Positions 15 to 33,235 of a stretch of DNA of 64,000 nt are shown piece after piece. Numbering within the stretch: the first letter of the stretch is position 1; each line of letters opens with the position of its first letter. The stretch is taken from NCBI GenBank assembly GCA_963844965.1, contig CAWJQC010000004.1, forward strand, positions 96,001-160,000, in the 5' to 3' direction. Made by a program: the position numbers and the translations under genes. The notes under the pieces are model-generated. The model did not search any database and had not been told where the DNA came from. It worked only from the letters and a program-made list of their open reading frames with translations. The DNA is from an uncultured bacterium (GTDB taxonomy: Bacteria; Patescibacteriota; Minisyncoccia; UBA6257; 2-01-FULL-56-20).

Positions 15-1913
15 ATGATCTCGGAACTGCCATACGAACTCACGTTTTCGCAAAAGAAATCATTGTGGGAAATCATCCAGGACCTCGCCAAAAAACAGCC
101 GATGAACCGCCTGCTCCAGGGCGACGTGGGCTCCGGCAAGACGGTTGTCGCGGCGCTCGCCGCGGTAATTACCGCGGAAAACGGGCTGCAGACCGCGTTT
201 ATGGCGCCAACCGAGGTTCTCGCGAGACAGCATTTTGAAACATTGAAAAAATTATTCGCCGGAATTCCCTCGATCCATCAACCCGTAGTTGGGCTTCTCA
301 CGTCAAGCGAAGCAAAAATCCTCTACGCGACAGACCTTGAATCAAAAATCAAAAAACCGGAGTTGCAGGAAAAAATAAAAAACGGCGAGGTAAAAATAGC
401 CATCGGCACGCACGCTTTGATACAAAAAGACGTGGCGTTCGGCAATCTTGCCTTTATCATCATTGACGAACAGCATAGATTCGGCGTCTCACAACGAGCT
501 GCGCTCGTTCGCGGACAGACGCAGAATGATAATACGCGGACAGACGCTGAACAACTACTATACGAAAAAACGACGTTTGAGATAAGAAAAAGTCTGTTTG
601 AGGTGAGAAAACAACTGGGCCTTGGTCATAAAGAAGTGGTGTATCAGAAAGCATTGGAGGAGGAGTTCAAGAAATCCGGTGTAATATTTGAGAAAGAAAA
701 GAAAATTCCTGTCGTTTATAACAAGAAAAAGATTGGCGTTTATCAACCGGATTTTGTCATAGATAATGAAGTAATTTTGGAACTTAAGGCTCTTCCCTTT
801 ATCGGCGGCATCGAAAAAAAACAGCTGTGGAATTATTTGAGGGGTTCGGATTACAAACTCGCGCTTATGGCAAACTTTGGACCGGAAAGATTATCCATAG
901 AGCGGGTAGTATACGATATTGCGCGGAGTCGGCGGCTGTCAGCGTCCGGTCAGCAACTGTCCGCGCCTATCCCCCACCTCCTCTCAATGTCCGCCACGCC
1001 AATCCCACGCACGCTCATGCTCACCGTCTTCGGCGATTTGGATATATCGCTCATCACCGAACTTCCCGCCGGCAGAAAAAATATCGTAACAAAAATAATC
1101 CCCCCACGGGGCAGGAGCGAAGCCTATGAATTCATCCGCGGCGAAGTGAGGGCCAGCCGGCAGGTTTTTGTCATCTGCCCCCGCATTGACAAACCGCAGA
1201 CAGGCGCAGACCACACGCAGACAAACGCAGACAAGACACAGACAGACGCAGACAATTTTCAGCGGCTGTCTGCGTCAAGTCAGCGACTGTCCGCGTTAAG
1301 TCCACGTAAGTCCGCGTTAGTGTGGGAAGTAAGATCCGTGAAAGAAGAATTTGAAAAATTATCCAAGAAAATTTTTCCGGATTTGCGCGTCGCCATGCTC
1401 CACGGCCAGCTCAAGCCAAAAGAAAAAGCGGGTATCATGAAGGACTTCCGCAACTACAAAATAGATATTCTCGTTTCAACTTCCGTCGTGGAAGTTGGCG
1501 TGGACGTGCCGAACGCAACAATAATGATGATTGAAGGCGCCGATCGCTTCGGGCTGGCTCAGATCTACCAATTCCGCGGACGCGTGGGGCGCGGCGAACA
1601 CCAATCCTATTGCTTCCTGTTCACGGATTCGTCCGCCAAAACTACGCGCGAGCGGCTGCAGGCCGTCCTTGAAGCCAAGAACGGCTTTGAGCTCGCCGAG
1701 AAGGACCTGAAGATCCGCGGTCCCGGCGAATTCCTCGGCACGGCGCAGACCGGCTTTCCCGACACGGCGATGAGCGGCCTCATGAACCCGGAGCTCGTGA
1801 AAGCAAGCCGCGAAGCGGCGGCAAAAATCGTCCAAAAAGATCCGCTTTTCAAAAATTATCCGCTCCTGAAAACCAAATTAAACGAGTTCCGGAAGGAAAT
1901 CCACTTGGAGTAG
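15..1913 (+). CDS. recG: RecG-like ATP-dependent DNA helicase, helicase core only (N-terminal wedge domain lies upstream of the window); carries three in-frame insertions
   Basis: Walker A GDVGSGKT, IIDEQHRFGV (DEQH), SATPIPRTL, QFRGRVGRG motifs. About 150 extra aa between motifs II and III. Confidence 0.85.
   Translation: MISELPYELTFSQKKSLWEIIQDLAKKQPMNRLLQGDVGSGKTVVAALAAVITAENGLQTAFMAPTEVLARQHFETLKKLFAGIPSIHQPVVGLLTSSEAKILYATDLESKIKKPELQEKIKNGEVKIAIGTHALIQKDVAFGNLAFIIIDEQHRFGVSQRAALVRGQTQNDNTRTDAEQLLYEKTTFEIRKSLFEVRKQLGLGHKEVVYQKALEEEFKKSGVIFEKEKKIPVVYNKKKIGVYQPDFVIDNEVILELKALPFIGGIEKKQLWNYLRGSDYKLALMANFGPERLSIERVVYDIARSRRLSASGQQLSAPIPHLLSMSATPIPRTLMLTVFGDLDISLITELPAGRKNIVTKIIPPRGRSEAYEFIRGEVRASRQVFVICPRIDKPQTGADHTQTNADKTQTDADNFQRLSASSQRLSALSPRKSALVWEVRSVKEEFEKLSKKIFPDLRVAMLHGQLKPKEKAGIMKDFRNYKIDILVSTSVVEVGVDVPNATIMMIEGADRFGLAQIYQFRGRVGRGEHQSYCFLFTDSSAKTTRERLQAVLEAKNGFELAEKDLKIRGPGEFLGTAQTGFPDTAMSGLMNPELVKASREAAAKIVQKDPLFKNYPLLKTKLNEFRKEIHLE
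505..555. repeat. GCGGACAGACGC-type palindromic oligo-repeat, in frame in recG (left flank of GxxExxY insert)
   Basis: gcggacagacgcag...cgcggacagacgctg; same motif family recurs at 926, 1196, 15287, 24724 and 24919. Confidence 0.6.
575..880 (+). other. GxxExxY / PD-(D/E)XK-like (PDDEXK_3) domain inserted in frame inside recG
   Basis: LGLGHKEVVYQKAL...ILELKAL...LANFG matches the GxxExxY family signature. Sits between helicase motifs II and III and is bracketed by oligo-repeats at 505-555 and 926-967. Confidence 0.6.
926..967. repeat. oligo-repeat (inverted orientation: ggctgtc...gtccgcg), right flank of GxxExxY insert in recG
   Basis: gagtcggcggctgtcagcgtccggtcagcaactgtccgcgcc. Confidence 0.55.
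1196..1320. repeat. compound GCAGAC/GTCTGC palindromic repeat block, in frame in recG (encodes TQTNADKTQTDADNFQRLSASSQRLSALSPRKSAL)
   Basis: gcagacaaacgcagacaagacacagacagacgcagac followed by inverted copies gctgtctgcgtc, gactgtccgcg, gtaagtccgcg. Confidence 0.6.
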
Positions 1914-2179: not shown

Positions 2180-3139
2180 CTACTGCTCCATATGACCGAC
2201 AAGGGTGCATGTATAAAAGTTACCAGTGCATTGGGATGAATTAGTAACATCCCAACAAGTTGAATAAGTCTCCAGCGCGCCACTACAAGGAGTGGTATTA
2301 GCGCATGAACTGTTGTAGTAACGAATATAAGTCATATACTGCGGGCAGAAGTAAATCGGCGTCCCGCCTGTAACTTTAAGAGTGCCGGGAATGATGACGT
2401 TGCCGTTTGCTAGAACCTGTATAGCTGCTCCGGTTGTAGTAGCTGTACCAGTATTCGGCATACTGCCGCCAATACCGACGTTGCCGGCATAGTTGATGAC
2501 TAATTTATTTGATTCTGCCGCACTAGGATAATTTCCCACCATAAGCATGGCGCCCTGATTAACATCGCCCACATCGAGCAGCACCGCATCCGCATTGGTC
2601 GTAGCCGCGGTGCCGTAGAACGTGCCGGTATTGGTATCCCTGTTCTGCTCGAACTGGGTGCCGTAATCACCGGTGTTATACAAGAACGAATAGGTGGGAT
2701 TACTAAAATCGCTGTACATCTCAAGGCCGGGGCCGGTACCGGCAGTATTTGAATATGCATAAAATTGATAGTTGGCGGGCGCCGCCGCTCCCACCCCGAT
2801 TCCGGAGGTGAATAAACCTCCTCCAGTTACCGTCAGTTTCTGGGTCGGCGCCGTATTCCCGATGCCGACGTTGCCGGAGGAATTCCAAATACCGGTGCCA
2901 GGCATCGTAACGTTGCCAGTAAAGGTCGGGCTCGCTAAAAGCGCCGCTCCGGTAACCTGCGCTACCCCGTAGTCACCAGATGCCGCCACCACGGCTCCGG
3001 TTCCGCCAAATACCGAGGTGACGCCGCCGCTCGGCCAAGCCGTGATGCAATTCGCCCCGGAGATGCAATATTGAGTGGCGTTTGCGGTAACCGTTGACGT
3101 ACAGAGCGTACCCTCCGCCTGAGTTTGTGAAATACCCAC
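2180..3139 (-). CDS. C-terminal part of tail-fibre-like surface protein 1 (Cys-rich C-terminus; joined to 2973-4625 by an apparent frameshift near 3125-3140)
   Basis: GNVGIGNTAP motif continues; ORF overlaps the upstream ORF in another frame. Confidence 0.5.
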   Translation of the reverse strand: MGISQTQAEGTLCTSTVTANATQYCISGANCITAWPSGGVTSVFGGTGAVVAASGDYGVAQVTGAALLASPTFTGNVTMPGTGIWNSSGNVGIGNTAPTQKLTVTGGGLFTSGIGVGAAAPANYQFYAYSNTAGTGPGLEMYSDFSNPTYSFLYNTGDYGTQFEQNRDTNTGTFYGTAATTNADAVLLDVGDVNQGAMLMVGNYPSAAESNKLVINYAGNVGIGGSMPNTGTATTTGAAIQVLANGNVIIPGTLKVTGGTPIYFCPQYMTYIRYYNSSCANTTPCSGALETYSTCWDVTNSSQCTGNFYTCTLVGHMEQ

Positions 3140-4625
3140 CGTAGCCGCCGGAGTTGGTGGCTAATCCATAAACTCCTACGCCGTTACCTGCCGCTGACTG
3201 TCCGGCAACCCCTACCCAGTAAGAAGCGCCGACCTGTCCGCCGAGAATCCCATTCGTTGTGGCGTTGCTATTATTTCCCGTTACCGAGCCGACCCATGAT
3301 GAATTGACGGCGCTCGTGAAACTGCCTACGCCAGCAACAACCAACGGATATGCCGGCGTCGTCGTCCCGATGCCGACGTTGCCGTTCGTGATGGAGAAAT
3401 ATGGACCACCCCCCATCCCAGTGCCAAGCGCCAAATTGAGGCCATAAGATTGTGACGTCAAATCAGCGTATGTAAATGCTCCGTTGCTGGTGGTGAACTT
3501 TATCCAATCTACGTTTGACCCGTTTGTATTGTCTAGCCGTAAGGTAGACGTACTTCCACTCTGAATATCAAGTTTTGCGACCGGCGCCGTGTTCCCGATG
3601 CCGACGTTGCCGTTGTTATTTATAAACAAGGCGGGTGACGCGCCGGATGAGTCAGAACCCTGAGTCAAAAAGGCCATTGGAGAACCGTTACTGCCGATCC
3701 GGGCCCAGTTCGCAACTGCTGCCGGTCCAAGCTGTAGCAAGGCATCGGTACCGTTAGATGTCAAGTCAAACTTGGCGAATTTTGACCCGTTCACGACATG
3801 CAACGTCGTTGCCGGCGACGCCGTCCCGATGCCGACGTTGCCGCCATATGCAAGCGTCATTATTTGGGAGTACCAACTGCTGGGGTTCTGATACCCAATC
3901 GTCAAGACCGAATTATCTGACGCTGGTGCAAAAACATACCCATTATTACTGCCAGCCATATCGCGGAGCTTGAAGGCTCCAAAGACATCAAGTGTATTTT
4001 GTGGTGACGGCGTCCCGATGCCGACCGAGCCCGAGAAATACCCGCCGCCGTAGACGGAGAGGGCCTGCGGCAAGTTGCTGGCGGAGGATGTGGTAACGCC
4101 CAGAGCGGAAGAAACAAACACACTGTGGGGGAACCCGTAGGGAACGCCGGAATCGGCCTCTAGAGAATTGAACACCGCGGGCGTGACATAGCCGGCGTTG
4201 ACGGTCCCGTTAAAATTGCCGTGGATCGTGCCGTTCACGTCAAGCTGGTAGCCAGGCGACGCCGTCCCGATGCCGACAGAACCGTCATTGCGCACGACAA
4301 GTATGGGCGACGAATTCGGATAAAGGATCTTCAATGTGTAATTCGCGGCATCAGCGGACGAAGAAGCAACGATGAGGAGTTTGGTTTCCGGCAGAGGCGT
4401 GGGCGTACCAACGCCCAGATTCCCAGCCGCATTAGTGCTTACCGCTCCCGAACCGAAACCGGGGGTGGGAGGAGGAGAGGCAAACGCGTAGTAGGTAGTA
4501 GGTAGTAGGTAGTAGGTAGTAGCGAGAATGACGAAAAACAAAACGTGCGGCGCAAAACTCGGACGCACACCGTAAAACTTGCGGCGGAGCTTTTGCTGTT
4601 TTTGGAACAAATCTGCGTCCATCAT
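2973..4625 (-). CDS. tail-fibre-like surface protein 1 (N-terminal part; paralog of 8555-11680)
   Basis: N-terminus about 95% identical to gene 8555-11680. KQQKLRRKF plus hydrophobic anchor, TTYYLLPTTYY, repeated NGNVGIGT(A/T)SP motifs. Block 3346-3850 is near-identical to 9464-9960. Confidence 0.6.
   Translation of the reverse strand: MMDADLFQKQQKLRRKFYGVRPSFAPHVLFFVILATTYYLLPTTYYAFASPPPTPGFGSGAVSTNAAGNLGVGTPTPLPETKLLIVASSSADAANYTLKILYPNSSPILVVRNDGSVGIGTASPGYQLDVNGTIHGNFNGTVNAGYVTPAVFNSLEADSGVPYGFPHSVFVSSALGVTTSSASNLPQALSVYGGGYFSGSVGIGTPSPQNTLDVFGAFKLRDMAGSNNGYVFAPASDNSVLTIGYQNPSSWYSQIMTLAYGGNVGIGTASPATTLHVVNGSKFAKFDLTSNGTDALLQLGPAAVANWARIGSNGSPMAFLTQGSDSSGASPALFINNNGNVGIGNTAPVAKLDIQSGSTSTLRLDNTNGSNVDWIKFTTSNGAFTYADLTSQSYGLNLALGTGMGGGPYFSITNGNVGIGTTTPAYPLVVAGVGSFTSAVNSSWVGSVTGNNSNATTNGILGGQVGASYWVGVAGQSAAGNGVGVYGLATNSGGYGGYFTNSGGGYALYVNGYRKRHSILHLRGELHHGLAERRRHLGIWRNRSRGGGIW
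4488..4521. repeat. (GGTAGTA)n heptamer array inside the signal-peptide region of surface protein 1
   Basis: gtaggtagtaggtagtaggtagtaggtagtag encodes TTYYLLPTTYY. Confidence 0.8.
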
Positions 4626-4633
4626 AATAATTT

Positions 4634-4658
4634 ACTACCTACTACCTACTACCTACCG
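4634..4658. repeat. (TACTACC)n heptamer array in the 5' leader of surface protein 1
   Basis: tactacctactacctactacctacc immediately 5' of ATG at 4625. Confidence 0.8.
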
Positions 4659-4661
4659 CTT

Positions 4662-4745
4662 TTAATTGTTTCGGGGCGACAATCTCATAGCTTTATTATA
4701 TAAGAACAGGGAAAGATATGTAGAAAGGGGTGTGCATAGGCGCGA
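4662..4745 (-). promoter_or_regulatory. conserved leader module (TATATAAT -10-like box) plus remnant mini-ORF ATGAGATTGTCGCCCCGAAACAATTAA, shared with locus at 12308-12915
   Basis: catagctttattatataagaacagggaaaga(c/t)atgta(a/g)aagggg recurs at 12846-12915. ttgttt(c/t)ggggcgacaa recurs at 12308. Confidence 0.45.
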
Positions 4746-4859
4746 AAACTGCCCGAGCGGCGGCCGCAAATTTCCCGGCCATCCGGGATATAAAAAAGGC
4801 TCTCGCGAGGAATTGCGAATTGCGAATCCTCACGAGAGCCAAACATACCGGAGGGGAAT

Positions 4860-5567
4860 CTAGTGGCCGACGATGGGTGGAAGACCGGCCTGGTAGCGGC
4901 GGTAATTCCCCATGTACCGGTCCGCCACCTGAATATTCCGCACGCCGTACCAAACGTGAACCGTGCTAAGGTAACCGGCAAAGCCGATGCTTGCGAGACG
5001 CTCGGCCCTCACCATTCTCCTGCCCCACTTATGTCCCCCCCATTTATGCTCTGTCCAGCGAGGGATAGCCGAAGAAAAGTAGGAAAAAACGACATCGAAC
5101 GCCGAGGCGCTCCCTAACACCCCAGCAATATTGCGATTGCCAAATTGGGTATATAGGGAGTCCGTCTCACGGGGGCCCTGCTGGCTAGCATAACGCAAAC
5201 CGTTGCTAGCGACGTACTCTGGAATAAAGGGTGGCGTAGAGAGGGAACGGAACGTGGTTATGTTGTCAAACGCAAATGGCCCGCGCTCAACACCCCACAT
5301 CCAAGCCTGTGTCCTCTCAAGCTTGCTCTGGTCCCGGTTTAACTTGCCGCCAGGCCAAGCCATAACCCTAAACACCTTATCAAAGGTTGATGGCTCAACC
5401 GGTGCCGCCGAACGCAAGGGCGAGATAGCGGGTGCGAGTGCCGGTGCAGACGCGGCGGATGCCGCCACGGGCGTTGACGCTAAGGGCAGTTCGGTAAGAC
5501 CGTCTGCCGGAAACGCGCGAACCGAAATGATTGTCAAGATTGTCAACAAAAGCACCAGTCGCTTCAT
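4860..5567 (-). CDS. secreted hypothetical protein
   Basis: Signal peptide MKRLVLLLTILTIISVRA followed by an Ala/Pro-rich linker; no recognisable domain. Confidence 0.4.
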   Translation of the reverse strand: MKRLVLLLTILTIISVRAFPADGLTELPLASTPVAASAASAPALAPAISPLRSAAPVEPSTFDKVFRVMAWPGGKLNRDQSKLERTQAWMWGVERGPFAFDNITTFRSLSTPPFIPEYVASNGLRYASQQGPRETDSLYTQFGNRNIAGVLGSASAFDVVFSYFSSAIPRWTEHKWGGHKWGRRMVRAERLASIGFAGYLSTVHVWYGVRNIQVADRYMGNYRRYQAGLPPIVGH

Positions 5568-5791
5568 AACGACCTCCTCAAAAAGATTTAATTTAATTGC
5601 GCAAAGCAATTTGGCTACTCCCAAGAATAACCAAATCGCTTTGCGCAAGCAATATATTCATTTTTCAAGATACTTGCCTATCTATGCTAATTATAGCACA
5701 AATAAACAACCTGTCAACCCCCACCTTTTTCCGAAAAGGTGGGGGTCAAGTGGCCGCGGCGGCTGACCCGCTGAAGCGACGATACCCTACA

Positions 5792-6046
5792 ACTCATAAA
5801 TCTCATCTCGCTTGCCTATTTTGAGTATATAAATTGCGCCATTTCTAACGTCAAATACCAACCTATAATCGCCCACGCGAAATCTGAACTCCCCGCCGCG
5901 GTTGTCAGCCAAACGCTTGGCAAACCTCAACGGATTATCCTCTGACGCATAAATGCGCATCTTCTTTGCTTTGCGATGCGCACTTGAACTTCTCTCGGCA
6001 GGGATTCCAACTGCTTAGCCGCCCGCTTGGCATAGAAAATCTTCGT
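5792..6046 (-). pseudogene. RelE/ParE-family toxin, decayed copy (start ATG->ACG plus 5-nt insertion)
   Basis: Aligned to intact copy 7812-8066: cttcgttaca vs cttcattaca, and ttctttgctttgcgatg vs ttcttcgcgatg. Confidence 0.6.
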
Positions 6047-6222
6047 TACAATCCCAACTTCTTAAACAGCTTATCCTGCGATATAGTTTTTTTTGCCTTG
6101 ATTTCTTTTCTCGCTTCGCGGACATCCAAAATATGCGCGAGGTAGCCAAGCAGGGCGCCGAAGCGAGCATCCGTTTTCCTCAAACGCTCGTATTCTTGTT
6201 TTGGTATAGTAACCGTGGTCAT
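6046..6222 (-). CDS. type II antitoxin (58 aa, MTTVTIPKQEYERLRKTDARF...), copy A
   Basis: Identical to 8066-8242; lies immediately upstream of the RelE-like toxin with a 1-nt TAATG overlap. Confidence 0.55.
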   Translation of the reverse strand: MTTVTIPKQEYERLRKTDARFGALLGYLAHILDVREARKEIKAKKTISQDKLFKKLGL

Positions 6223-6345
6223 ATAAGTGCATTATAGTAAACCGGCGGCGGATATCAACCCCCACACCAAACGAGGACTTTCCGGGTCCCGCGCCGAAGG
6301 CGCATGTCCTCGTTAGGATTCTCGATAGGAATTGCCGGTGCGACA

Positions 6346-6564
6346 TTACAACAGAGAAACAAACTGCTCCGGTGCAAGTTCGGCATCACGTAGTATTTTG
6401 CGAAGCAGAGAAACATCCACTGCCTTATAGTTCGGCACCGTTACGGATTTCTTGCCGGGACAGGACAAACGAATATGGCTGCCGCGCTGGCGAACTTCGC
6501 GATAACCGAACTTTGCCAAAGCAGAAATAATCTTGCGGCCGGAGATAACAGGCAGTTTAGACAT
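6346..6564 (-). CDS. hicA: HicA-family toxin (mRNA interferase)
   Basis: 72 aa, RGSHIRL motif, paired with upstream HicB. Confidence 0.7.
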   Translation of the reverse strand: MSKLPVISGRKIISALAKFGYREVRQRGSHIRLSCPGKKSVTVPNYKAVDVSLLRKILRDAELAPEQFVSLL

Positions 6565-6570
6565 GACGAG

Positions 6571-6822
6571 CTATACGGCAATTGTATGTAAGCTGATTTC
6601 CTGCGGCTTGTAATCCTGCAAAATTTGCCTGGACTGCTTTTCTTCCAAAATAAGCATTATAACCTCTCGGATATTGCGGAGCGCCTCGTCAATCGTCTTG
6701 CCCTGCGCATAACATCCTTCAAAAACAGGGCATTCAACAACATAAAACCCGCTCTCTCCTTTTTCGGCGAGGAGCGGCAATTGCCGGCCGCGGCCTATAA
6801 ATTTTGCTCTTGTTCTTGCCAT
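6571..6822 (-). CDS. hicB: HicB-family antitoxin
   Basis: FYVVECPVFEGCYAQGKTIDEALRNIREVI. Listed ORF extends to 6840; MARTRAKF is the likely start. Confidence 0.65.
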   Translation of the reverse strand: MARTRAKFIGRGRQLPLLAEKGESGFYVVECPVFEGCYAQGKTIDEALRNIREVIMLILEEKQSRQILQDYKPQEISLHTIAV

Positions 6823-7101
6823 AGTGAAATAATACCACAACCCTTTAGGCGGTCAAGTGAAATTGGTAGCCAAAATCGCCCTGCCACACTAAAACCCCTT
6901 TAAATTCTTCCAGCAAGCAAACTGCCCGCGCTTTTCCGCGCGGGCTTTTTTTAAATCCCCGCTGAATACCCAGCCGAGACGTGGCGGAGACGAAACAGTG
7001 AGATATCTTTCTTTCCTCGCTTCGCAAGAAATCTTGCCGTTCCTCCGCGAGCCAATATCTACGGCCCCCGGCTGGAGGGATGAAATGAAATGGACGCTCA
7101 A

Positions 7102-7296
7102 CTATTTCTGTTTAATCTCTCTAATACCGAGGTCCCGGCAGATTTTCTTTGCCAAAAATTCATTGATTTCGCTATGGCGGGGCACCGTAGACGAACGTCT
7201 GACTTTGGGGTTAAAAAAGACGCTGTGCTTGGCGCCTTCCCGAACAAAAACACACCCCTCATGCTCAATGTGGCAAATTAAAACAACTCGCTTCAT
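7102..7296 (-). CDS. hicA: HicA-family toxin, second pair
   Basis: 64 aa, HSEINEFLAKKICRDLGI, YcfA/HicA-like. Confidence 0.65.
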   Translation of the reverse strand: MKRVVLICHIEHEGCVFVREGAKHSVFFNPKVRRSSTVPRHSEINEFLAKKICRDLGIREIKQK

Positions 7297-7299
7297 TCA

Positions 7300-7515
7300 T
7301 CAAACTGTAAGCAGCTGCCGCGTCAACTTCTGTTTGCCGGCCTCGGCATCAGCCAGCGCCCGGTTGGTTTCCAAAATTAGCCGAAGCGCTTCTTTAAGAT
7401 TTTCTTTTACTTCCTTCACGCTTTTCCCTTGAGTATTTACCCCGGGCACTTCCTCTATCCAGCCGACATACCATTTACCGCTTTTTTTAAACACGGCTGT
7501 AAATTTGTATTTCAT
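7300..7515 (-). CDS. hicB: HicB-family antitoxin, second pair
   Basis: MKYKFTAVFKKSGKWYVGWIEEVPGVNTQGKSVKEVKENLKEAL. The longer listed ORF (to 7626) probably has an artefactual N-terminal extension. Confidence 0.6.
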   Translation of the reverse strand: MKYKFTAVFKKSGKWYVGWIEEVPGVNTQGKSVKEVKENLKEALRLILETNRALADAEAGKQKLTRQLLTV

Positions 7516-7811
7516 GACTGCCATACATTTAAGATAATCCCAAAGCATGTAGCTGTCAACTCCTCTCAACTCCCGAGAAAACCCAGATGGCGAGCTTCTC
7601 CCTGCCTCGATAGGGTAGAAAAACAACTCAAACAGCCCAACGAAATTCGTTGGGCTGGATTTTTTTAACCAATGGCGTCACCCGCCGTTGAATTCCTTAA
7701 TATCTTTTGGCGAACACCGTTTAAACTACCTGTCAACCCCCACCTTTTTTCCGAAAAGGCGGGGGTCAAGCGGCCGCGGCGGCTGACCCGCTGAGCTGAA
7801 GCGACGATACC

Positions 7812-8066
7812 CTACAACTCATAAATCTCATCTCGCTTGCCTATTTTGAGTATATAAATTGCGCCATTTCTAACGTCAAATACCAACCTATAATCGCCCA
7901 CGCGAAATCTGAACTCCCCGCCGCGGTTATCAGCCAAACGCTTGGCAAACCTCAACGGATTATCCTCTGACGCATAAAAGCGCATCTTCTTCGCGATGCG
8001 CATTTGAACTTCTCTCGGCAGGGATTCCAACCGCTTAGCCGCCCGCTTGGCATAGAAAATCTTCAT
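7812..8066 (-). CDS. RelE/ParE-family toxin (intact copy)
   Basis: 84 aa, ...RFRVGDYRLVFDVRNGAIYILKIGKRDEIY, typical RelE/ParE C-terminus. Confidence 0.7.
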   Translation of the reverse strand: MKIFYAKRAAKRLESLPREVQMRIAKKMRFYASEDNPLRFAKRLADNRGGEFRFRVGDYRLVFDVRNGAIYILKIGKRDEIYEL

Positions 8067-8242
8067 TACAATCCCAACTTCTTAAACAGCTTATCCTGCG
8101 ATATAGTTTTTTTTGCCTTGATTTCTTTTCTCGCTTCGCGGACATCCAAAATATGCGCGAGGTAGCCAAGCAGGGCGCCGAAGCGAGCATCCGTTTTCCT
8201 CAAACGCTCGTATTCTTGTTTTGGTATAGTAACCGTGGTCAT
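8066..8242 (-). CDS. type II antitoxin, copy B
   Basis: 58-aa ORF below the 60-aa track cutoff; stop overlaps toxin ATG (TAATG). Confidence 0.55.
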   Translation of the reverse strand: MTTVTIPKQEYERLRKTDARFGALLGYLAHILDVREARKEIKAKKTISQDKLFKKLGL

Positions 8243-8274
8243 ATTAAGTGCATTATAGCAAACCGGCGGCGGAT

Positions 8275-8345
8275 GTCAACCCCCACACCAAACGAGGACG
8301 CGCGCCTTCGGCGCAGGACCCGGAAAGTCCTCGTTTGGTGTGGGG
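8275..8345. repeat. 20-bp-stem palindromic hairpin element (cccccacaccaaacgaggac / gtcctcgtttggtgtggggg)
   Basis: Perfect inverted repeat; related copies at ~6250-6310 and 33165-33235; second hairpin family cccccacctttttccgaaaaggtggggg at 5714 and 7733. Confidence 0.75.
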
Positions 8346-8554
8346 GTAAATTATGCCGAAAAAGCCGGAAGGAAAGATGCGATCTATGTTTCTCCCGCAA
8401 GAATACCCCCGCCGCAGGCGGGGGATGAATTGCGGTTCGAGAAACATAAACCCCGCCGATGGCGGGGTGAACTACCACCTAACATGCTGCATGTGCTAAG
8501 TATTTCGTGCGCAGCACGGCAGTTGAGATACCACCGCTGTGAGGCGGTGGTAGT

Positions 8555-11500
8555 TCATTTCAGAAGAGCGTCAACTTTTTCTTGGAGCGCGGCGTTCTGC
8601 GCCTGAAGAGCGCTGATCTCTTGTTGCTGCTCCTTGATGGATTCTATCATCGGCGCGATAAGCCCAGTATAATCCAGACCAAGGGTTCCGCTCGCGTCAG
8701 TTTCCACCAACTGCGGGAAAACCGTCTGTACATTCTGCGCGGTTAAACCGAGCTGCTCTCCACTGCCCATCAGTTTTGTATCTTTCCATTCAAAGGAAAC
8801 CGGCGTCAGTAACTCAAGCTCCGCAAGCGAACCCGACAGTGGAACTATATTCTTCTTCAAACGCTCGTCGGAGCTATTTATCCACTGCCCAGCATTGTTT
8901 GTATACTCGCCGTGGGCTCCCTGAAAGTCATACGTACTGCCGGAACCATAGACGCCGATTGCAGCAGTTGAAAACACCCCATACCCTGCGGGATTACCGA
9001 AGTATCCAGCGGAACCGTTCGCGCCCGCGGTATCCGAATATCCTTCCACCCCAACCCCAGTACCAGCGTTGTAGCCATAGACGGCGGGAAGACCATTACC
9101 AGTACCGTAGCCATAGACCCCATACCCAGTCGCACCAGCAGTGCCATAGACACCATACATAGAGCCGGTGCCATAAATCCCTGCCCCAGCTTGCCCGGCG
9201 CCACCGACGCTTAATGTTGACGCCGGTGCCGTCGTCCCGATGCCGACGTTGCCGTTCGTGATGGAGAAATATGGACCACCCCCCATCCCAGTGCCAAGCG
9301 CCAAATTGAGGCCATAAGATTGTGACGTCAAATCAGCGTATGTAAATGCTCCGTTGCTGGTGGTGAACTTTATCCAATCTACGTTTGACCCGTTTGTTTT
9401 GTCTAGCCGTAAGGTAGACGTACTTCCACTCTGAATATCAAGTTTTGCGACCGGCGCCGTGTTCCCGATGCCGACGTTGCCGTTCGTGATGGAGAAATAT
9501 GGACCACCCCCCATCCCAGTGCCAAGCGCCAAATTGAGGCCATAAGATTGTGACGTCAAATCAGCGTATGTAAATGCTCCGTTGCTGGTGGTGAACTTTA
9601 TCCAATCTACGTTTGACCCGTTTGTATTGTCTAGCCGTAAGGTAGACGTACTTCCACTCTGAATATCAAGTTTTGCGACCGGCGCCGTGTTCCCGATGCC
9701 GACGTTGCCGTTGTTATTTATAAACAAGGCGGGTGACGCGCCGGATGAGTCAGAACCCTGAGTCAAAAAGGCCATTGGAGAACCGTTACTGCCGATCCGG
9801 GCCCAGTTCGCAACTGCTGCCGGTCCAAGCTGTAGCAAGGCATCGGTACCGTTAGATGTCAAGTCAAACTTGGCGAATTTTGACCCGTTCACGACATGCA
9901 ACGTCGTTGCCGGCGACGCCGTCCCGATGCCGACGTTGCCGGAACCTAAAATTGTCACGAGATCCGTTTTCGAAGAAGCGCCCGTTTTTTCACTAAACTG
10001 GAAAGCGGTGGTGGGATTGTTATAAACATTATAAAAATCAACTTCTGCATTTCCTCCCGTATAATTCCAACCGACGGCCAGACCACCAAGGCCATCACTC
10101 ACCGGTAAAGATTGCGTGTTATATGAAGTTTTCAGGAACCCACCCTCAACATCGAGCTTGTAACCTGGTGCCGCCGTCCCGATGCCGACCGAGCCCGTGA
10201 AATATCCGCCGCCGTAGACGGAAAGCGCCTGCGGACCTACGGCACTGCCCGAAGTGGCAACCGCCAACGAAGAGGAAACGACGACGCTGGCCGGGAAAAG
10301 ATAATTGCCCGTGCTGACAACGTTTGAACCGAAATACCCGGCCGCCACGTTGCTGGCGTTCACGGTGCCACCCGAAGAAGCGCAGTCGGAACCGGTGCCA
10401 GAAACAACGCCCGCAGCGCTTACGTGCAAACACTGGATAGAACCGCTGATTCCAGAAACAGTAAGGGTGTTGGCACTTGCGCCACTGCTGAAAGTTTGAA
10501 GCGCGGTCCAGGTGTTCGCATGTCCAAGATTCAATGCGGCGGACACGGCGCCCGCGGTTGGAGATATCGTTAGAGTTCCGACGCCGCTGTCGCTGACCGA
10601 GGTTACGCTGCCGCCTGCCGCAGACCAAGAAAGCGTGCCAGCGCCGTTGTTCGTGAGCACAGTACTTGCACCGCCTTGCGCGGCCGGCCAGGAATAAGTG
10701 ATACTGTTGATTTTCGCGATGTTGCCGTTATTGTCAACCTGGAATTGACTGCTCGCGCCGACGCTAAAAAGCGACGCTGGCCCCGTCGTCCCGATGCCGA
10801 CGTTGCCGCCCGCAGTTATCCTCATTCTCTCAGCAGCTCCAGCTGAAGTGTCAACCCTAAATATAAGACCATTCGTCGCAGCGCTCGCCTTGACATCTAT
10901 AAACCCTCCCCCAGAAGAATCACTACTGAAAAGTCTCATGCCGTTAACACCGACGCTCGTATCACCTCCAAAGAATAGGTTGCCGTTGACGTTGCCTGCT
11001 GCCATAGGCAAAAGCATATTTGACGTAAGCTGAAGCTGTTGAGTTGGGTTCGCCGTCCCGATGCCGACGTTGCCGCTGAAATACCCGCCGCCGTAGACGG
11101 AGAGGGCCTGCGGCAGATTGCTCGCGGTTGTCGTTGTGATTCCAAGACCGGAAGTGATAAACACGCTGTGGGGAAACCCGTAGGGAACGCCGGAATCGAG
11201 TTGGAGAGAGTTAAACACCCCGGGCGAGATGTTGCCGGCGCTTACGAGACCGCTCACGCTGCCATAAATGGACATGCCGCTGGCGAGATTCACACTGCCG
11301 GCATTAGTAAGATTTGAAGTGCCGATACCGACGGTGCCATCGTTGCGCACGACGAGAAGCGGAACAGCAGAGCCGGGCTGGACAACCTGCAGAGCGAAAT
11401 TTGAGCTGTCGGTTGACGAAGCCACAATCAGAAGCCTCACGTTGGCGGAGGGTGTTGACGTTCCAATGCCCAGATTGCCCGCGGCGTTAACGCTTATCGC

Positions 11501-11680
11501 TCCCGAACCGTAACCGGGAGTGGGAGGAGGAGAAGCAAACGCATAGTAGGTAGTAGGTAGTAGGTAGTAGGTAGTAGCGAGAATGACGAAAAACAAAACG
11601 CGCGGCGCAAAACTCGGACACGCACCGTAAAACTTGCGGCGGAGCTTTTGCTGTTTTTGGAACAAACCTGCGTCCATCAT
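8555..11680 (-). CDS. tail-fibre-like surface protein 2 with peptidase S74-type C-terminal intramolecular chaperone domain
   Basis: C-terminus has SSDERLKKNI...LTAQNVQTVFPQLV...coiled coil; repeated NGNVGIGT motifs; N-terminal anchor plus TTYYLLPTTYY. Confidence 0.7.
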   Translation of the reverse strand: MMDAGLFQKQQKLRRKFYGACPSFAPRVLFFVILATTYYLLPTTYYAFASPPPTPGYGSGAISVNAAGNLGIGTSTPSANVRLLIVASSTDSSNFALQVVQPGSAVPLLVVRNDGTVGIGTSNLTNAGSVNLASGMSIYGSVSGLVSAGNISPGVFNSLQLDSGVPYGFPHSVFITSGLGITTTTASNLPQALSVYGGGYFSGNVGIGTANPTQQLQLTSNMLLPMAAGNVNGNLFFGGDTSVGVNGMRLFSSDSSGGGFIDVKASAATNGLIFRVDTSAGAAERMRITAGGNVGIGTTGPASLFSVGASSQFQVDNNGNIAKINSITYSWPAAQGGASTVLTNNGAGTLSWSAAGGSVTSVSDSGVGTLTISPTAGAVSAALNLGHANTWTALQTFSSGASANTLTVSGISGSIQCLHVSAAGVVSGTGSDCASSGGTVNASNVAAGYFGSNVVSTGNYLFPASVVVSSSLAVATSGSAVGPQALSVYGGGYFTGSVGIGTAAPGYKLDVEGGFLKTSYNTQSLPVSDGLGGLAVGWNYTGGNAEVDFYNVYNNPTTAFQFSEKTGASSKTDLVTILGSGNVGIGTASPATTLHVVNGSKFAKFDLTSNGTDALLQLGPAAVANWARIGSNGSPMAFLTQGSDSSGASPALFINNNGNVGIGNTAPVAKLDIQSGSTSTLRLDNTNGSNVDWIKFTTSNGAFTYADLTSQSYGLNLALGTGMGGGPYFSITNGNVGIGNTAPVAKLDIQSGSTSTLRLDKTNGSNVDWIKFTTSNGAFTYADLTSQSYGLNLALGTGMGGGPYFSITNGNVGIGTTAPASTLSVGGAGQAGAGIYGTGSMYGVYGTAGATGYGVYGYGTGNGLPAVYGYNAGTGVGVEGYSDTAGANGSAGYFGNPAGYGVFSTAAIGVYGSGSTYDFQGAHGEYTNNAGQWINSSDERLKKNIVPLSGSLAELELLTPVSFEWKDTKLMGSGEQLGLTAQNVQTVFPQLVETDASGTLGLDYTGLIAPMIESIKEQQQEISALQAQNAALQEKVDALLK
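9236..9691. repeat. 228-bp (76-aa) tandem duplication inside surface protein 2 (single copy in paralog at ~3361-3590)
   Basis: Two copies differ by 1 nt (N/K); unit NGNVGIGNTAPVAKLDIQSG...GGGPYFSIT. Confidence 0.85.
11544..11577. repeat. (GGTAGTA)n heptamer array in signal-peptide region of surface protein 2
   Basis: gtagtaggtagtaggtagtaggtagtaggtagtag. Confidence 0.8.
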
Positions 11681-11687
11681 AATAATT

Positions 11688-11747
11688 TACTATCTACTAC
11701 TTACTACCTACCACCTACTACCTACTACCTACTACTTACTGCTTCGC
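11688..11747. repeat. degenerate TACTACC-type heptamer array (7 units) filling the gap between the stop of 11736-12200 and the ATG of surface protein 2
   Basis: tactatctactacttactacctaccacctactacctactacctactacttac. Confidence 0.8.
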
Positions 11748-12200
11748 AGGCGGTCCCTGGATGGTGCCGCTTGCCACTTGCGAAGGAAGCTGCTGCGAAG
11801 GAAGTTGCTGTCCCGATGACTGAAGCGAAGAAGGGTTGGCGAATGCCTGCACAAGCTGACTGTCGTTGCGCAGGCTCGTCCAGAAAATCACCTGCTTGGC
11901 GTTCAAATGGACCTCGTCAACCGGGCCCCAGAAAGCGTTCTTGAGGGCGGAGAGTCCGAGCTGTGCCTGATTCTGCTGATTGACGCTCCTCTGCAGGAAC
12001 CAGACGTTTGTCAGACGCAGGGACGGGAACCAGCTCAGTTTGCCGAAATAGATATCACCGGTCGTAAGATAGACCGCCGAATACTCGGAAGGGCCAGCCG
12101 GATTTTTGGGAGACATGAGTTTCAAGCCGAGCCACAGGCCGAAAATCAGGACGACGAGCACAATGAGAACCAGGACAGCGATTAATTTTTTGGGCAACAT
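11736..12200 (-). CDS. membrane-anchored hypothetical protein
   Basis: N-terminal TM helix; no recognisable domain. Confidence 0.4.
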   Translation of the reverse strand: MLPKKLIAVLVLIVLVVLIFGLWLGLKLMSPKNPAGPSEYSAVYLTTGDIYFGKLSWFPSLRLTNVWFLQRSVNQQNQAQLGLSALKNAFWGPVDEVHLNAKQVIFWTSLRNDSQLVQAFANPSSLQSSGQQLPSQQLPSQVASGTIQGPPAKQ

Positions 12201-12319
12201 GAACTATGATACTAATATACAAATTGTACTAATGATACGAATGAATACAAATTCGTATCATTTGTATCATTAGCATGATTAGTATATTGGTATCGCAATT
12301 ACTTGTGTTTACGACTTTT

Positions 12320-12852
12320 TTATTGTTTTGGGGCGACAACGAGGTAACCGATGGGACCTTTTTCCGGACCGCCGCAGGAAGCGCAGTAAAAGGTAAACTT
12401 GCCTTCAAGATAGGCCTGGAACTGGAACGTTTTGCTTGTCCCCTTTGGGGCAGAGAGATTCAGACCGTAATCGGGCTGGGTAAGGTCATAATTTCCGTCA
12501 ACCGCGTTCACGGTCAGGTTTATGACATCAAACTTGCGGACGATGATGGTGTCCGGTGTAAAGGCGTTGGCTTCAATCTTTATGGAAAAGTCGCGGTTGC
12601 TCGCGCTTGAGACCTGGCTCGCGGGGCTCACGGTCTGCGGAATGGCAACACCCTGCGGGACATTCTGGGAGTTCTGGTTGGGCACGACGATGTTCTGAGG
12701 CGCCACTTCGCGGGTCGCGGTAGCGTTGGGCTTGGCGTTGCCGCCGGCCTGAATGGCCGAGGTTCCGGGCTGGCGTTCTACGAGAAGGAAGATGCCCACA
12801 AAGACCACGACCACGACAACCGCCACAATGGCAATTATTTTGTTTTTGCTCA
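12320..12852 (-). CDS. membrane-anchored cupredoxin-like domain protein (copper ligands not conserved)
   Basis: TM helix, Thr/Pro/Gln linker, C-terminal ...FDVINLTVNAVDGNYDL...GKFTFYCASCGG...GYLVV beta-sandwich pattern; start assumed at MSKNKII. Confidence 0.45.
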
Positions 12853-12915
12853 TAGCTTTATTATATAAGAACAGGGAAAGACATGTAAAAGGGGGGTGTG
12901 CATAAGTGCGGAAAC
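12853..12915 (-). promoter_or_regulatory. conserved leader module (copy of 4681-4745) directly 5' of 12320-12852
   Basis: Near-identical 60-bp block with TATATAAT box. Confidence 0.45.
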
Positions 12916-12933
12916 CGCGGCGGGGGCTACTGC

Positions 12934-13797
12934 TTAGGTACAAGAAACGCTTGAAGTCGCAATCATGCCGCTGCCCGTAATATAAAGCCGATAGCAGGAA
13001 GCACCATTCTTCAGGATTATGCCGGACGCGCTATTGCTTATATATATATCTCCCCCGGCGACCTGAAGCGCCTGCGTCGGCTGCGAACCCATGTTCACGC
13101 CGGCGTAGCCGGTAAAATAAACATTATTTGAGCCGGGTAAGCCGAAATTGAGCACGCCGTTGACGTTACTCCAGTATTGCGTGGCAGTTCCAAGCGGCAG
13201 GCCGGTGGTTGACGATGGAAACACACCGGTATCAAAAGTCGCCGCATTCACGCGCGCAATCGCCGTCTGCAGTGCCTCCGAAAATTGCTGTGTCGCGTTC
13301 TGCGTATTGTTGGCCACAACGAATGAAACGCTCACGGAGTCGTGCCCCGGCGCGTTGGAACGCTTTATAAAAGTGAGGGAAGTAACGTTCACCCTCGGAG
13401 TTGTAAGCGGCTGCGGCGTGCCGGTAGCGGTCTGTTGCAAATATACCGTGCCAGGCGTACCGGAAGACAGATAAATGTAGGTCGGGTCCAACGAACTGGC
13501 TGCCATCCGCAACTTTAGGGTGCTCGTAGCGATATCCTGGTTTAACTCAACAAGACTTGAGCGTTCTATGTAATATTGGATCTGCTGCAACAGGAACTGG
13601 CTTTCTTGGTTCACCTCGGCGGCAGCCGACTGGCGGGATTGGATACGTATGACGGCGACCATCATCGTTATAAACGCAACCATGACTATTGCGAAGATCG
13701 CCGAAAAAGCAAGAAGTTCAATGATGGTGAAACCCTTCTTTGAACGGTAGGTGTAGTAAGTGGTAGGTGGTAAGTGGTAGGTGGTAAATTTCTTCAT
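12934..13797 (-). CDS. type IV pilin-like protein (class III signal peptide)
   Basis: ...KKG/FTIIELLAFSAIFAIVMVAFI prepilin cleavage/methylation motif. Unusually long leader MKKFTTYHLPPTTYYTYRS is encoded by degenerate heptamer repeats. Confidence 0.7.
   Translation of the reverse strand: MKKFTTYHLPPTTYYTYRSKKGFTIIELLAFSAIFAIVMVAFITMMVAVIRIQSRQSAAAEVNQESQFLLQQIQYYIERSSLVELNQDIATSTLKLRMAASSLDPTYIYLSSGTPGTVYLQQTATGTPQPLTTPRVNVTSLTFIKRSNAPGHDSVSVSFVVANNTQNATQQFSEALQTAIARVNAATFDTGVFPSSTTGLPLGTATQYWSNVNGVLNFGLPGSNNVYFTGYAGVNMGSQPTQALQVAGGDIYISNSASGIILKNGASCYRLYITGSGMIATSSVSCT
13746..13787. repeat. degenerate GGTAGGT/GGTAAGT heptamer array inside the pilin leader peptide
   Basis: ggtaggtgtagtaagtggtaggtggtaagtggtaggtggtaa. 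Confidence 0.65.
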
Positions 13798-13806
13798 ATT
13801 AACTAA

Positions 13807-14187
13807 TTATAACACTTGGGCGCCTAATGCGCTTATTGCCTTATTTATCATCCACATGATTTCATCTAAATCTTCGGCCAATTTCCTGTATGTTTCGGGG
13901 TTCAAATATTTTAATTCATAGACAATCTCTAACTGAGTTTCCAGCTCTGCGCCGGAACTATATGCGTTTCTCAAAAATTGTAATTTTTCTTTTTTGGAAC
14001 TTCTCCGAAAACCCTCGGCAATATTAGACGGCATAGAAATCGCCGCTCGCCGCATTTGACTTGTTAGACCATATAGTTCCGACGGTGGAAATTTTTCGGT
14101 AACTCCGTATATCAGAACCGCATACGATTTTGTGCGTTTCCAAATGTTCAAATCTCTGTAAGATTTAATGGCTGAATTTTCCGCCAT
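13807..14187 (-). CDS. four-helix-bundle protein (TIGR02436 / Avd-like, 23S rRNA IVS protein family)
   Basis: YRDLNIWKRTKSYAVLIYGVTEKFP...MRRAAISMPSNIAEGF. Confidence 0.7.
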   Translation of the reverse strand: MAENSAIKSYRDLNIWKRTKSYAVLIYGVTEKFPPSELYGLTSQMRRAAISMPSNIAEGFRRSSKKEKLQFLRNAYSSGAELETQLEIVYELKYLNPETYRKLAEDLDEIMWMINKAISALGAQVL

Positions 14188-14205: not shown

Positions 14206-14240
14206 CATACTACCTACCACCTACTACATACTACTTACCG
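14206..14240. repeat. degenerate TACTACC heptamer array in 5' leader of 13807-14187
   Basis: ctactatatcatactacctaccacctactacatactacttacc. Confidence 0.6.
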
Positions 14241-16101: not shown

Positions 16102-16176
16102 GGCCCTGTCGTCTAGTCTGGCCTAGGACACAGGCTTTTCAAGCCTGGTACACGGGTTCGAATCCCGTCGGGGCTG
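16102..16176 (+). tRNA. tRNA-Glu (anticodon UUC)
   Basis: Cloverleaf: acceptor GGCCCUG/CGGGGCU (two G-U pairs), anticodon loop uuUUCaa, T-loop GGTTCGAATCC; no encoded CCA. Confidence 0.75.
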
Positions 16177-30580: not shown

Positions 30581-30719
30581 CTCCCCCAACCCCTCCTTTG
30601 GGGCGCGCCGAGGGCGGTTGCGGCAACCCTTGGAACAGGGTATGGTTGAGATATCCACGCATAGGCGATGAAGCTCGCCGCAACCGCCCTTAGGGGCTGA
30701 TAGCTTCTATCTCAAAAAG

Positions 30720-33164: not shown

Positions 33165-33235
33165 ACCCCCACACCCAACGAGGAGTGCTGGTAACAACGC
33201 ACAAGGCATTGCTCCTCGTTAGGTGTGGGGGTGAA
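33165..33235. repeat. palindromic hairpin element (cccccacacccaacgaggag...ctcctcgttaggtgtggggg), same family as 8275-8345
   Basis: Imperfect 20-bp stems. Confidence 0.65.

Follow-up and report, generated by a model that had tools for sequence, protein, structure and literature searches.

In Haemophilus influenzae, 7-bp repeats upstream of the paired adhesin genes hmw1A and hmw2A form simple-sequence contingency loci. Rickettsia palindromic elements, like palindromes of the miniature inverted-repeat transposable element (MITE) or repetitive extragenic palindromic (REP) type, are inserted in frame in coding genes. Hairpins around a gene are known from the intervening sequences (IVSs) of 23S rRNA; that of Coxiella measures 428 to 444 nt and contains an S23p open reading frame (ORF) and a 28-bp stem, in which RNase III cuts (PMC4990558). 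Here, we analyzed a 64,000-nt stretch of DNA (referred to as the window) from an uncultured, ultrasmall Patescibacteriota bacterium of the Parcubacteria type (CAWJQC010000004.1, positions 96,001 to 160,000, forward strand), in which heptamer arrays lie at the starts of two paralogous fibre-adhesin genes and of a prepilin gene. An original prediction, made from the sequence of the window, had taken these arrays for slipped-strand on/off switches. We found that they are arranged as inverted pairs, that the pair at the pilin is conserved in related loci with both arms changing together and with a constant number of coding units, and that the downstream arm is translated. The arrays are thus probably not independent slippage tracts but the paired arms of long hairpin cassettes akin to 23S rRNA IVSs. 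On what we consider the best reading, the cassette is vertically inherited, and its stop-free downstream arm is tolerated in cleaved leader peptides.

Heptamer arrays around three start codons

Heptamer arrays gave 19 matches in the window (0.06 expected by chance), and three inverted array pairs (A, B, and C) were the sole such arrays in the 64 kb. The minus strand holds every gene of the attachment cluster (ORF list), as well as all of the arrays and hairpins described in this section. On this coding strand, each pair has the order (GGTAGTA)n (the purine-rich arm), start codon, (TACTACC)n, and the arms are reverse complements with predicted stems of 24 to 33 bp. Arrays in both the leader and the signal peptide had been predicted correctly, but as one array occurring twice, whereas the two are reverse complements of each other.

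Hairpins A and B surround the start codons of the two adhesin genes. In hairpin A, the upstream arm (3.4 units of GGTAGTA; 4633 to 4656) ends 7 nt before the ATG and is followed by aattatt, the ATG, approximately 100 nt, and a downstream arm of five TACTACC units (4488 to 4522) in the signal-peptide coding region (Tandem Repeats Finder [TRF] and inverted-repeat search). Hairpin B is alike (TRF and folding), with a longer and slightly degenerate GGTAGTA-type upstream arm (7.6 units; 11688 to 11740), again ending 7 nt before the ATG, and a downstream arm of five TACTACC units (11544 to 11577) that is translated as TTYYLLPTTYY in the signal peptide. The arms are complementary over 24 nt at 100% in A and over 33 to 34 nt at 94 to 97% in B. 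In the RNA folds of both hairpins (z-scores, -4.9 for A and -8.2 for B), the start codon is in a loop closed by the array stems. Within this loop of approximately 110 nt, there is only the beginning of the adhesin coding sequence, from the ATG to about codon 35.

Hairpin C, at the prepilin gene, carries a cargo. Its upstream arm (a GGTAGTA/GGTGGTA array; 14208 to 14238) is approximately 85% complementary, over 27 to 31 nt, to positions 13753 to 13786 within the downstream arm, a degenerate TACCACC/TACTACC array (13746 to 13786) translated as the prepilin leader. The stem is present in both the minimum free energy and the centroid folds (z-score, -3.6). Between the arms lie a gene for a four-helix-bundle protein of the 23S_rRNA_IVP family (13807 to 14187; PF05635, E = 1.8e-36; TIGR02436, E = 8.4e-35) and the -10 box and start codon of the pilin, giving an element of approximately 495 nt. 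The prepilin (287 aa; 12934 to 13797) was identified by PF07963 (24.6 bits; cut-off, 21.2), by its 276 homologues, and by leader comparison. It has a class III signal, with KKG followed by FTIIELLAFSAIFAIVMVAF, and a 21-residue leader, MKKFTTYHLPPTTYYTYRSKKG, that is partly array encoded and precedes a cleavage site before FTIIE. The earlier claim that a degenerate array encodes the leader of the pilin was therefore correct, and the N-methylation motif and the inverted partner at 14208 to 14238 are now added to it. A further hairpin, cargo-less and intergenic, is located between the cupredoxin gene and the 154-aa ORF of the cluster (12208 to 12294; approximately 9-nt tandem units; 37-nt arms, 84% complementary). 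It may be an "empty" site, given that two of the related loci described below (L125 and L131) have a four-helix-bundle gene in the neighbouring gap after the pilin.

The two arms differ in coding properties. Upstream arm units have stops in all three frames and provide the stop codon of the upstream gene in several loci (in the window, the upstream array of hairpin B supplies that of the 154-aa ORF), whereas the translated downstream units are stop-free in every frame. A reading frame that enters from upstream thus ends in the upstream arm, and translation passes through the downstream arm. Two related loci depart from this asymmetry: in L126, the upstream unit ATGGAAT is stop-free and is translated as the tail of a glycosyltransferase (GT), and in L131, the downstream unit ATTCATA contains stops, with the pilin ATG inside the arm. 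Where the arm is translated, it is always in a segment that is cut from the mature protein, either a Sec signal peptide or a prepilin leader.

Inverted repeats of 24 to 50 bp bracket the start codons of three surface-protein genes, an arrangement like that of invertible-promoter systems, and recombination between the arrays could flip the loop with the start codon (at the pilin, with the promoter as well) and thereby disconnect the gene. We regard such a DNA inversion switch as extremely improbable. Although the repeats are present, no recombinase was found among the scanned principal ORFs of 1 to 20 kb, the four-helix-bundle gene has the orientation of the pilin in all six loci that carry it there, and the loop of adhesin A, when flipped, provides no in-frame start as read from the sequence.

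Conservation, covariation, and competing explanations

The window was compared with eight more loci, surrounding homologues of the pilin as well as P0044, a homologue of the adhesin; L127 to L129 are short contigs. The 276 homologues of the pilin come from Parcubacteria-type genomes. Among the best 120, approximately half have leaders of 15 to 25 residues that appear array encoded, including lineage-specific periodic peptides (TTYHLPPTTY, LHSTFYILHS, LDSRFQILDS, ATCYLLLATR, and HIPHSIFHILH), and the others have ordinary MKKG-type leaders. The gene order DoxX, GT, (four-helix-bundle gene), pilin, cupredoxin, membrane protein, and fibre is common to L122 to L126 and L131, except that DoxX was not seen in L122. 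In L130, which lacks the GT end, a Y1_Tnp gene is directly upstream of the four-helix-bundle gene, followed by the pilin and a cupredoxin-like gene.

Seven loci (the window, L122 to L126, and L131) have an array after the GT end and its reverse complement in the pilin leader region. The units fall into five classes (upstream and downstream, respectively): GGTAGTA and TACCACC in the window, L123, and L124; TAGAATG and CATTCTA in L122; GTAGCAA and TTGCTAC in L125; ATGGAAT and ATTCCAT in L126; and TATGAAT and ATTCATA in L131. In each class, the unit has changed in both arms together. Arms were matched by a gapless-helix score, as an RNAduplex cross-matrix, which allows long internal loops, was too noisy. 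Cognate arms scored 13 to 28, arms of different classes scored at most 12, and the maxima of shuffled sequences were 11 to 13.

Orthologous copies of the four-helix-bundle gene are located upstream of the pilin in L122 to L125 and L130. Identities across loci were 59 to 81% for the four-helix-bundle protein, 57 to 76% for the pilin, and 59 to 79% for the GT; in L122, the four-helix-bundle protein is the more diverged (59% vs 76% for its own pilin and 79% for its GT). Because the divergence of the cargo roughly tracks that of the pilin and the GT, the GT-pilin cassette appears, from these comparisons, to be old and vertically inherited in this Parcubacteria lineage, with its arms evolving in concert. 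L126 and L131 have the hairpin but no cargo. In L125, there are three four-helix-bundle paralogues (31 to 34% identical), each with its own arm type; the third cassette has its downstream arm within the signal peptide encoded by the following adhesin-like gene, the same layout as at the pilin.

The on/off switch of the original prediction would operate by slipped-strand phase variation: one 7-bp unit gained or lost in the coding array would switch the adhesins and the pilin, and the upstream array would modulate expression. Both adhesin coding sequences (CDSs) do contain a perfect tract of five nontriplet (7-bp) units (100% matches), the genes that would be switched encode surface attachment proteins and occur as two paralogues, as is typical of contingency loci, and the upstream arrays are unequal (3.4 units in A vs 7.6 in B). 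The unit counts, read from assembled sequences, point the other way. The coding arm has five units in A as well as in B, despite 7.5% divergence of the flanks, and the length difference between the two loci is confined to the untranslated upstream arms. An array of CTACATT has exactly four units in L122, L127, L128, and L130, in a group with pilins approximately 50 to 75% identical; L127 and L128 are from different samples. The 10-residue segment TTYHLPPTTY is constant in length in at least seven pilin homologues, as are the array-encoded leader segments among many pilin homologues that are 50 to 70% identical to each other. Such stability would not be expected of a hypermutable tract. No out-of-frame allele was found at an array in the window and the related loci; two pilin calls that begin after the leader and seemed N-terminally truncated (P0128 and P0204) proved to be in frame through the array when the DNA was read. 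Moreover, the coding tract of the pilin is degenerate (77% matches), and degenerate tracts slip poorly; the sole frameshift, in adhesin A, is in nonrepetitive sequence; and slippage leaves the complementary, covarying partner of every array unexplained. Because the arrays form long stems and covary, their unit number is constant, and no out-of-frame allele was found, slipped-strand phase variation is not supported by these sequences, and we consider it improbable. An exact look-up of adhesin B yielded no recorded contig, and the window proteins are all singletons, so that no same-species strains were available for unit counts, and a metagenome scan with a variable-gap pattern for orthologous adhesin 5' ends returned only one chance match (L001).

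A scan for (GGTAGTA)3 in one genome per species yielded at least 120 loci (L002 to L121) in many phyla, including Pleurocapsales cyanobacteria, Bacteroidota, the candidate phyla radiation, Elusimicrobia, and Campylobacterota, often with several arrays per genome. An inverted partner was present within 2.5 kb in 22 of the 120 unrelated loci, in the order GGTAGTA (stop rich) and then TACTACC (open); one additional pair, in L003, has the reverse arm order. The cultured Bacteroidota species Maribacter aquimaris (L035) has an array, a four-helix-bundle gene, and the complementary array, and another Bacteroidota locus (L018) has the upstream array and the gene. Most arrays elsewhere are directly upstream of unrelated genes, usually just before the start codon, and occasionally they are in frame within enzymes (a glycosyltransferase in L098 and a radical-SAM protein in L068).

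Hairpin repeats of a related appearance are present within genes of the window. The RecG helicase gene (15 to 1913, plus strand) carries, between the helicase motifs, an in-frame PD-(D/E)XK domain (aa 186 to 297; PF13366, GxxExxY type) flanked by complementary arrays of CGCGGACAGA-type units (approximately 510 to 560 and 905 to 960). This cassette resembles that of the four-helix-bundle gene but lies within a CDS. The same gene has a second in-frame hairpin of the same repeat family, without cargo (1170 to 1340; z-score, -6.6). The GT gene contains an in-frame insertion of the RecG repeat family (NAQTNADLPAKVSEGNLGGQVQTNAEVFPRSSALSPRKSAL; approximately 15245 to 15400, minus strand), and positions 1290 to 1319 match 15286 to 15315 in inverted orientation. 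Its orthologues in L122 to L131 have other insertions or none at the same loops, L123 with in-frame PTTY-type heptamer residues. A REP-like dispersed element is present in two copies (8279 to 8347 and 33165 to 33232), each a 21-nt perfect or near-perfect hairpin consisting of ACCCCCACACCAAACGAGGAC, approximately 27 nt, and the complement. The window also has an IS200-type Y1 transposase gene (47296 to 47733, minus strand; PF01797, E = 9e-39) with a perfect 20-nt inverted repeat (47322 to 47341 and 47745 to 47764), and, as noted above, a Y1_Tnp gene directly precedes the four-helix-bundle gene in L130. It is possible that a Y1 transposase is the mobilising enzyme of the hairpin elements.

These observations are relevant to a second explanation, according to which the hairpin cassettes, with four-helix-bundle or PD-(D/E)XK cargo or empty, are selfish palindromic elements without a function for the cell. 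They would be spread by a hairpin-recognising enzyme such as an IS200-type Y1 transposase and would survive only where they are harmless, i.e., between genes, in cleaved leaders, and in protein surface loops, resembling in this respect the Rickettsia palindromic elements. In its favour are the PDDEXK_3 gene in frame in RecG between complementary decamer arrays, the cargo-less hairpin next to it, the repeat insertions at variable loops of the GT in several relatives, the two Y1_Tnp genes (that of the window within its inverted repeat), the dispersal of (GGTAGTA)n over many phyla in several copies per genome, and the sporadic occurrence of arrays in adhesin signal peptides. The GT-pilin cassette, by contrast, occupies one fixed site, where its cargo has diverged roughly with the neighbours, which indicates long vertical residence. 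An old palindrome under neutrality would be expected to decay, but these arms have remained complementary through changes of unit, and the four-helix-bundle ORF is intact in six lineages. We therefore think it unlikely that the cassettes are purely selfish.

Covariation could also reflect shared recognition. The arrays would then be operators, inverted sites bound by a protein that recognises the repeats (the four-helix-bundle protein, as an Avd relative, being one candidate) and controls the promoters just downstream of the upstream arm. At the four-helix-bundle gene and the adhesins, the upstream arms occupy the -35/upstream region relative to the putative -10 boxes, each of the three four-helix-bundle paralogues in L125 has its own arm type, and the single such gene of the window is accompanied by three hairpins of one unit family. 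Weak matches to Avd models and the lack of a G:U bias in the arms fit this proposal as well. It is difficult to reconcile with L122, where the unit of the pilin cassette is not that of the adhesin hairpin and a single four-helix-bundle gene was seen at the locus, or with the cargo-less hairpins of L126 and L131, and the literature that we searched documents no DNA-binding activity for the four-helix-bundle family. On this evidence, operator arrays seem very improbable, and the IVS-like hairpin cassette remains the reading that we favour.

Attachment genes and their partial duplication

The cluster in which the three hairpins are located consists of surface/host-attachment genes, with a fibre like those of phage tails or of the mosaic adhesive trimers (MATs) of Bdellovibrio and a prepilin, and is of a known kind in Patescibacteria. 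In transcription order, locus B comprises the family-2 GT, the conserved upstream neighbour (14332 to 16005; profile match), the four-helix-bundle gene, the prepilin gene, a gene for a cupredoxin-like protein (12320 to 12853; profile match), a gene for a 154-aa membrane-anchored protein without a family match but with conserved synteny (11736 to 12200; ORF list and related loci), and adhesin B (8555 to 11680). The cupredoxin ATG is 6 nt past the -10 box of a TTTACA-18-TATAAT promoter (12860 to 12889). The cluster is partly duplicated: locus A (2180 to 4724) is a shortened copy, with the cupredoxin promoter and a 27-nt cupredoxin remnant followed by adhesin A, which is frameshifted in the assembly. 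A prophage origin was considered and rejected, because the gene order is conserved and of a cellular type and phage genes were not seen nearby. The original prediction of an attachment module holds for this cluster, to which the fibre with its chaperone, the prepilin, the cupredoxin-like protein, and the small membrane protein all belong.

Adhesin B is a protein of 1,041 aa with a signal peptide, nine GNVGIGT-type repeats, and a C-terminal Peptidase_S74 intramolecular chaperone domain (8705 to 8872; PF13884 at aa 937 to 992; E = 2.3e-14; 53.8 bits; cut-off, 22), with SSDERLKK at aa 936. Its shaft (aa 528 to 721) matches the Bdellovibrio fibre Bd2133 (8OND; E = 1.1e-10), and there are weaker matches to 8OML and to the tip of a phage long tail fibre (6F45). 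The 834 homologues are mostly from Patescibacteria, several of them named "tail fiber domain-containing protein," but none is a close relative (top matches, 36 to 43% identical). Adhesin A has eight GNVGIGT-type motifs; in a profile search, it had no S74 domain and ended instead in a Cys-rich domain. It had been described as a single gene from 2180 to 4625, which does not stand: two ORFs overlap in different frames, the first (2973 to 4625; 550 aa) encoding the true protein to approximately aa 512 and the second (2180 to 3139) encoding the C-terminal part with the Cys-rich end. The shift is a +1 frameshift at approximately 3093 to 3096 (GGTTACC). Removal of one T gives an 814-aa protein, and the homologue P0062 aligns without a gap across the junction. 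The frameshift reflects either a pseudogene or an assembly error.

Comparison by blastn revealed mosaic paralogy of the two adhesin loci on the minus strand, in agreement with the original prediction, which had also noted the many NGNVGIGT-type repeats and the S74-type end of gene B, the latter now supported by the profile match. Some of its measurements required correction. The 5' ends are 92.5% identical over 254 bp (4404 to 4657 vs 11459 to 11712) and not approximately 95%; after this start, identity is approximately 80% over 190 bp, and long stretches have no detectable DNA similarity. The near-identical internal block, given as more than 500 bp (3346 to 3850 vs 9464 to 9960), is real but spans 491 bp (99.4% identity; 3353 to 3843 vs 9451 to 9941). 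A recent recombination or conversion tract would fit this block, in line with the predicted gene conversion between the loci. The 228-bp tandem duplication in adhesin B (9223 to 9716; 2.1 copies of a 76-aa fibre module; TRF and blastn) is likewise present, and the single-base difference between its copies applies to the core (9398), with three further mismatches at one edge; locus A has a single copy.

The relationship between the loci is also evident upstream of adhesin A (4662 to 4724; blastn). A mini-ORF of 27 nt (4662 to 4688) is a fusion of the first five and approximately the last 20 bases of the cupredoxin gene, and the cupredoxin promoter is retained (TCTACA-18-TATAAT; 4695 to 4724). 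As proposed originally, these remnants support the view that locus A arose from locus B by deletion. An extra insert of approximately 150 nt in L123 (2440 to 2610), between the upstream arm and the four-helix-bundle gene, contains ATGAGATTGTCGGCCCC, which resembles this mini-ORF.

Between the adhesin loci is a toxin-antitoxin island with ParE and HicA/HicB genes. It comprises two HicA/HicB-like pairs (6346 to 6840 and 7102 to 7626) and a duplicated ParE-toxin/antitoxin pair (5703 to 6278 vs 7722 to 8299) whose copies are 96% identical, with a truncation in one copy of the toxin. Rfam matches above the gathering threshold were obtained for a fluoride riboswitch (30655 to 30716, plus strand) and two tRNA genes (16102 to 16176 and 28095 to 28165); the Rfam scan found no known RNA family at the attachment region and no rRNA in the window.

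Possible function and relation to known systems

The loop of hairpin C suggests how a cassette might act on the gene that it precedes. A TATAAT box preceded by TGT (an extended -10) is located 8 nt upstream of the pilin ATG, overlapping the stop codon of the four-helix-bundle gene (13806 to 13811, minus strand); the start region reads TGTTATAAT, and a like arrangement was seen by eye in L122 to L127. We infer that this box is a leaderless pilin promoter within the loop. The pattern TATAAT-N6-8-ATG is found at the pilin, the cupredoxin gene, the four-helix-bundle gene, and approximately 15 other genes, and many starts have TATAAT or TAGAAT 6 to 8 nt before them without a visible Shine-Dalgarno sequence (e.g., at 12853, 13797, 14187, 22307, 29686, 32489, 35649, 59805, and 61890). 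This pattern points to frequent use of leaderless mRNAs by the organism.

If this is so, a transcript initiated at the gene's own promoter would begin with the ATG, within the loop, would lack the upstream arm, and would be translated. Read-through transcripts from upstream would carry both arms and could form a duplex of 24 to 33 bp around the start codon. Such a duplex might block initiation or be cut by a double-strand RNase, as happens in rRNA IVSs, so that read-through would be silenced. The cassette would in this way insulate the pilin and the adhesins from read-through expression or silence it, with the upstream arm closing the upstream reading frame and the downstream arm being translated where extra residues are harmless. 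Promoter use, the RNA duplex in vivo, cleavage by RNase III, and a regulatory benefit are what we infer from the arrangement of the arms.

Several observations weigh against this reading or restrict it. Among the mismatches within the arms, G:U is no more frequent than A:C (14 vs 20), which leaves selection at the level of the sense RNA undemonstrated; pairing at the DNA level, or one protein reading both arms, would explain the covariation equally well. The adhesin ATG has no clear -10 box, with only TAAATT there, and the RNA mechanism as a whole is purely conjectural. The hairpin is not essential, since in L127 and L128 the cargo and most of the upstream arm have been deleted while the pilin and its array-encoded leader are intact. 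The hairpin at the adhesin start is kept only in the window and L122 and is decayed or absent in L123 to L126 and L131; most homologues of the adhesin N terminus have ordinary signal peptides, with arrays occurring sporadically. At the adhesins, the hairpin may accordingly be a tolerated passenger. Finally, a four-helix-bundle gene was present at only 2 of the 120 (GGTAGTA)n loci of other phyla, and arrays and cargo are thus not obligately linked.

A broader idea is that four-helix-bundle genes and their cognate inverted heptamer arrays constitute a module, regulatory or mobile, that occurs generally outside rRNA and has not been described before; these Parcubacteria would have domesticated it to gate pilin and adhesin expression, with the arms coevolving with the protein and the downstream arm doubling as leader-peptide coding sequence. 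We offer this as a speculation to which we attach low probability. In the literature searched (on Patescibacteria heptamer repeats, the repeat sequence, GxxExxY, and PF05635), a stem-ORF-stem architecture outside rRNA was not described, and neither was a function of PF05635/TIGR02436 other than that of Avd, the accessory protein of diversity-generating retroelements (DGRs); the family is mainly noted as the ORF of rRNA IVSs. The unusual feature of the present locus, for which these searches found no description, is a conserved, covarying hairpin cassette whose downstream arm is leader-peptide coding sequence. Its conservation in a protein-coding operon, together with the stem-ORF-stem arrangement in a Bacteroidota isolate, offers a testable setting for the function of this large family. 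There is also a risk of misannotation: perfect repeats of nontriplet units in adhesin genes are routinely called phase-variation switches, and here the comparative data identify them as hairpin arms. Attachment is central to the Patescibacteria lifestyle, and any layer of control on pilin and fibre genes is therefore of interest; in Saccharibacteria, type IV pili drive episymbiosis (PMC9894109, PMC12206443).

Like the MATs of Bdellovibrio and the S74 fibres of phages, adhesin B ends in an S74 domain bearing the S-D-x-R-x-K motif, and it shares with them a modular, mosaic construction with interchangeable C-terminal ends (PMC10769870). In contrast to these fibres, adhesin B is encoded in a conserved cellular operon of Patescibacteria with a prepilin, and copy A has a Cys-rich domain in place of S74. 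The cargo protein shares its four-helix-bundle fold family with Avd, which PF05635 has been described as resembling (PMC10053308), and it gives weak matches to bAvd and DivGenRetAVD. The scores are far under the cut-offs (33 vs 80 bits), and the region examined showed neither a reverse transcriptase nor a template/variable repeat pair; a DGR was rejected for these reasons.

The arrays themselves recall two other kinds of locus. As at hmw1A and hmw2A, 7-bp tandem units are located at the 5' ends of two paralogous adhesin loci, and, as in contingency loci, the tract here is built from nontriplet units within a CDS. It differs in that tract length is conserved and not hypervariable, each tract has a complementary partner, and no OFF allele was found among the loci compared. 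With the Rickettsia palindromic elements, the hairpins share their tolerance in ORFs, where they are translated, and their several copies per genome, the insertions in RecG and the GT being examples. The arms here consist of short tandem units that change in concert, some with a gene between them, and their position is conserved across genera.

The closest likeness, in sequence architecture, is to the 23S rRNA IVSs of Coxiella and Leptospira. The differences are clear: hairpin C is between the GT and pilin genes and not in a helix of 23S rRNA (9, 25, or 45), its arms are tandem heptamer arrays of which the downstream one is translated as the prepilin leader, and cargo-less versions are present at the adhesin starts. 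What the two have in common is their size (approximately 495 nt here vs 428 to 444 nt), an ORF of the PF05635/TIGR02436 family, terminal inverted repeats that form a long stem around this ORF, and a history of apparently one acquisition followed by vertical inheritance (PMC4990558).

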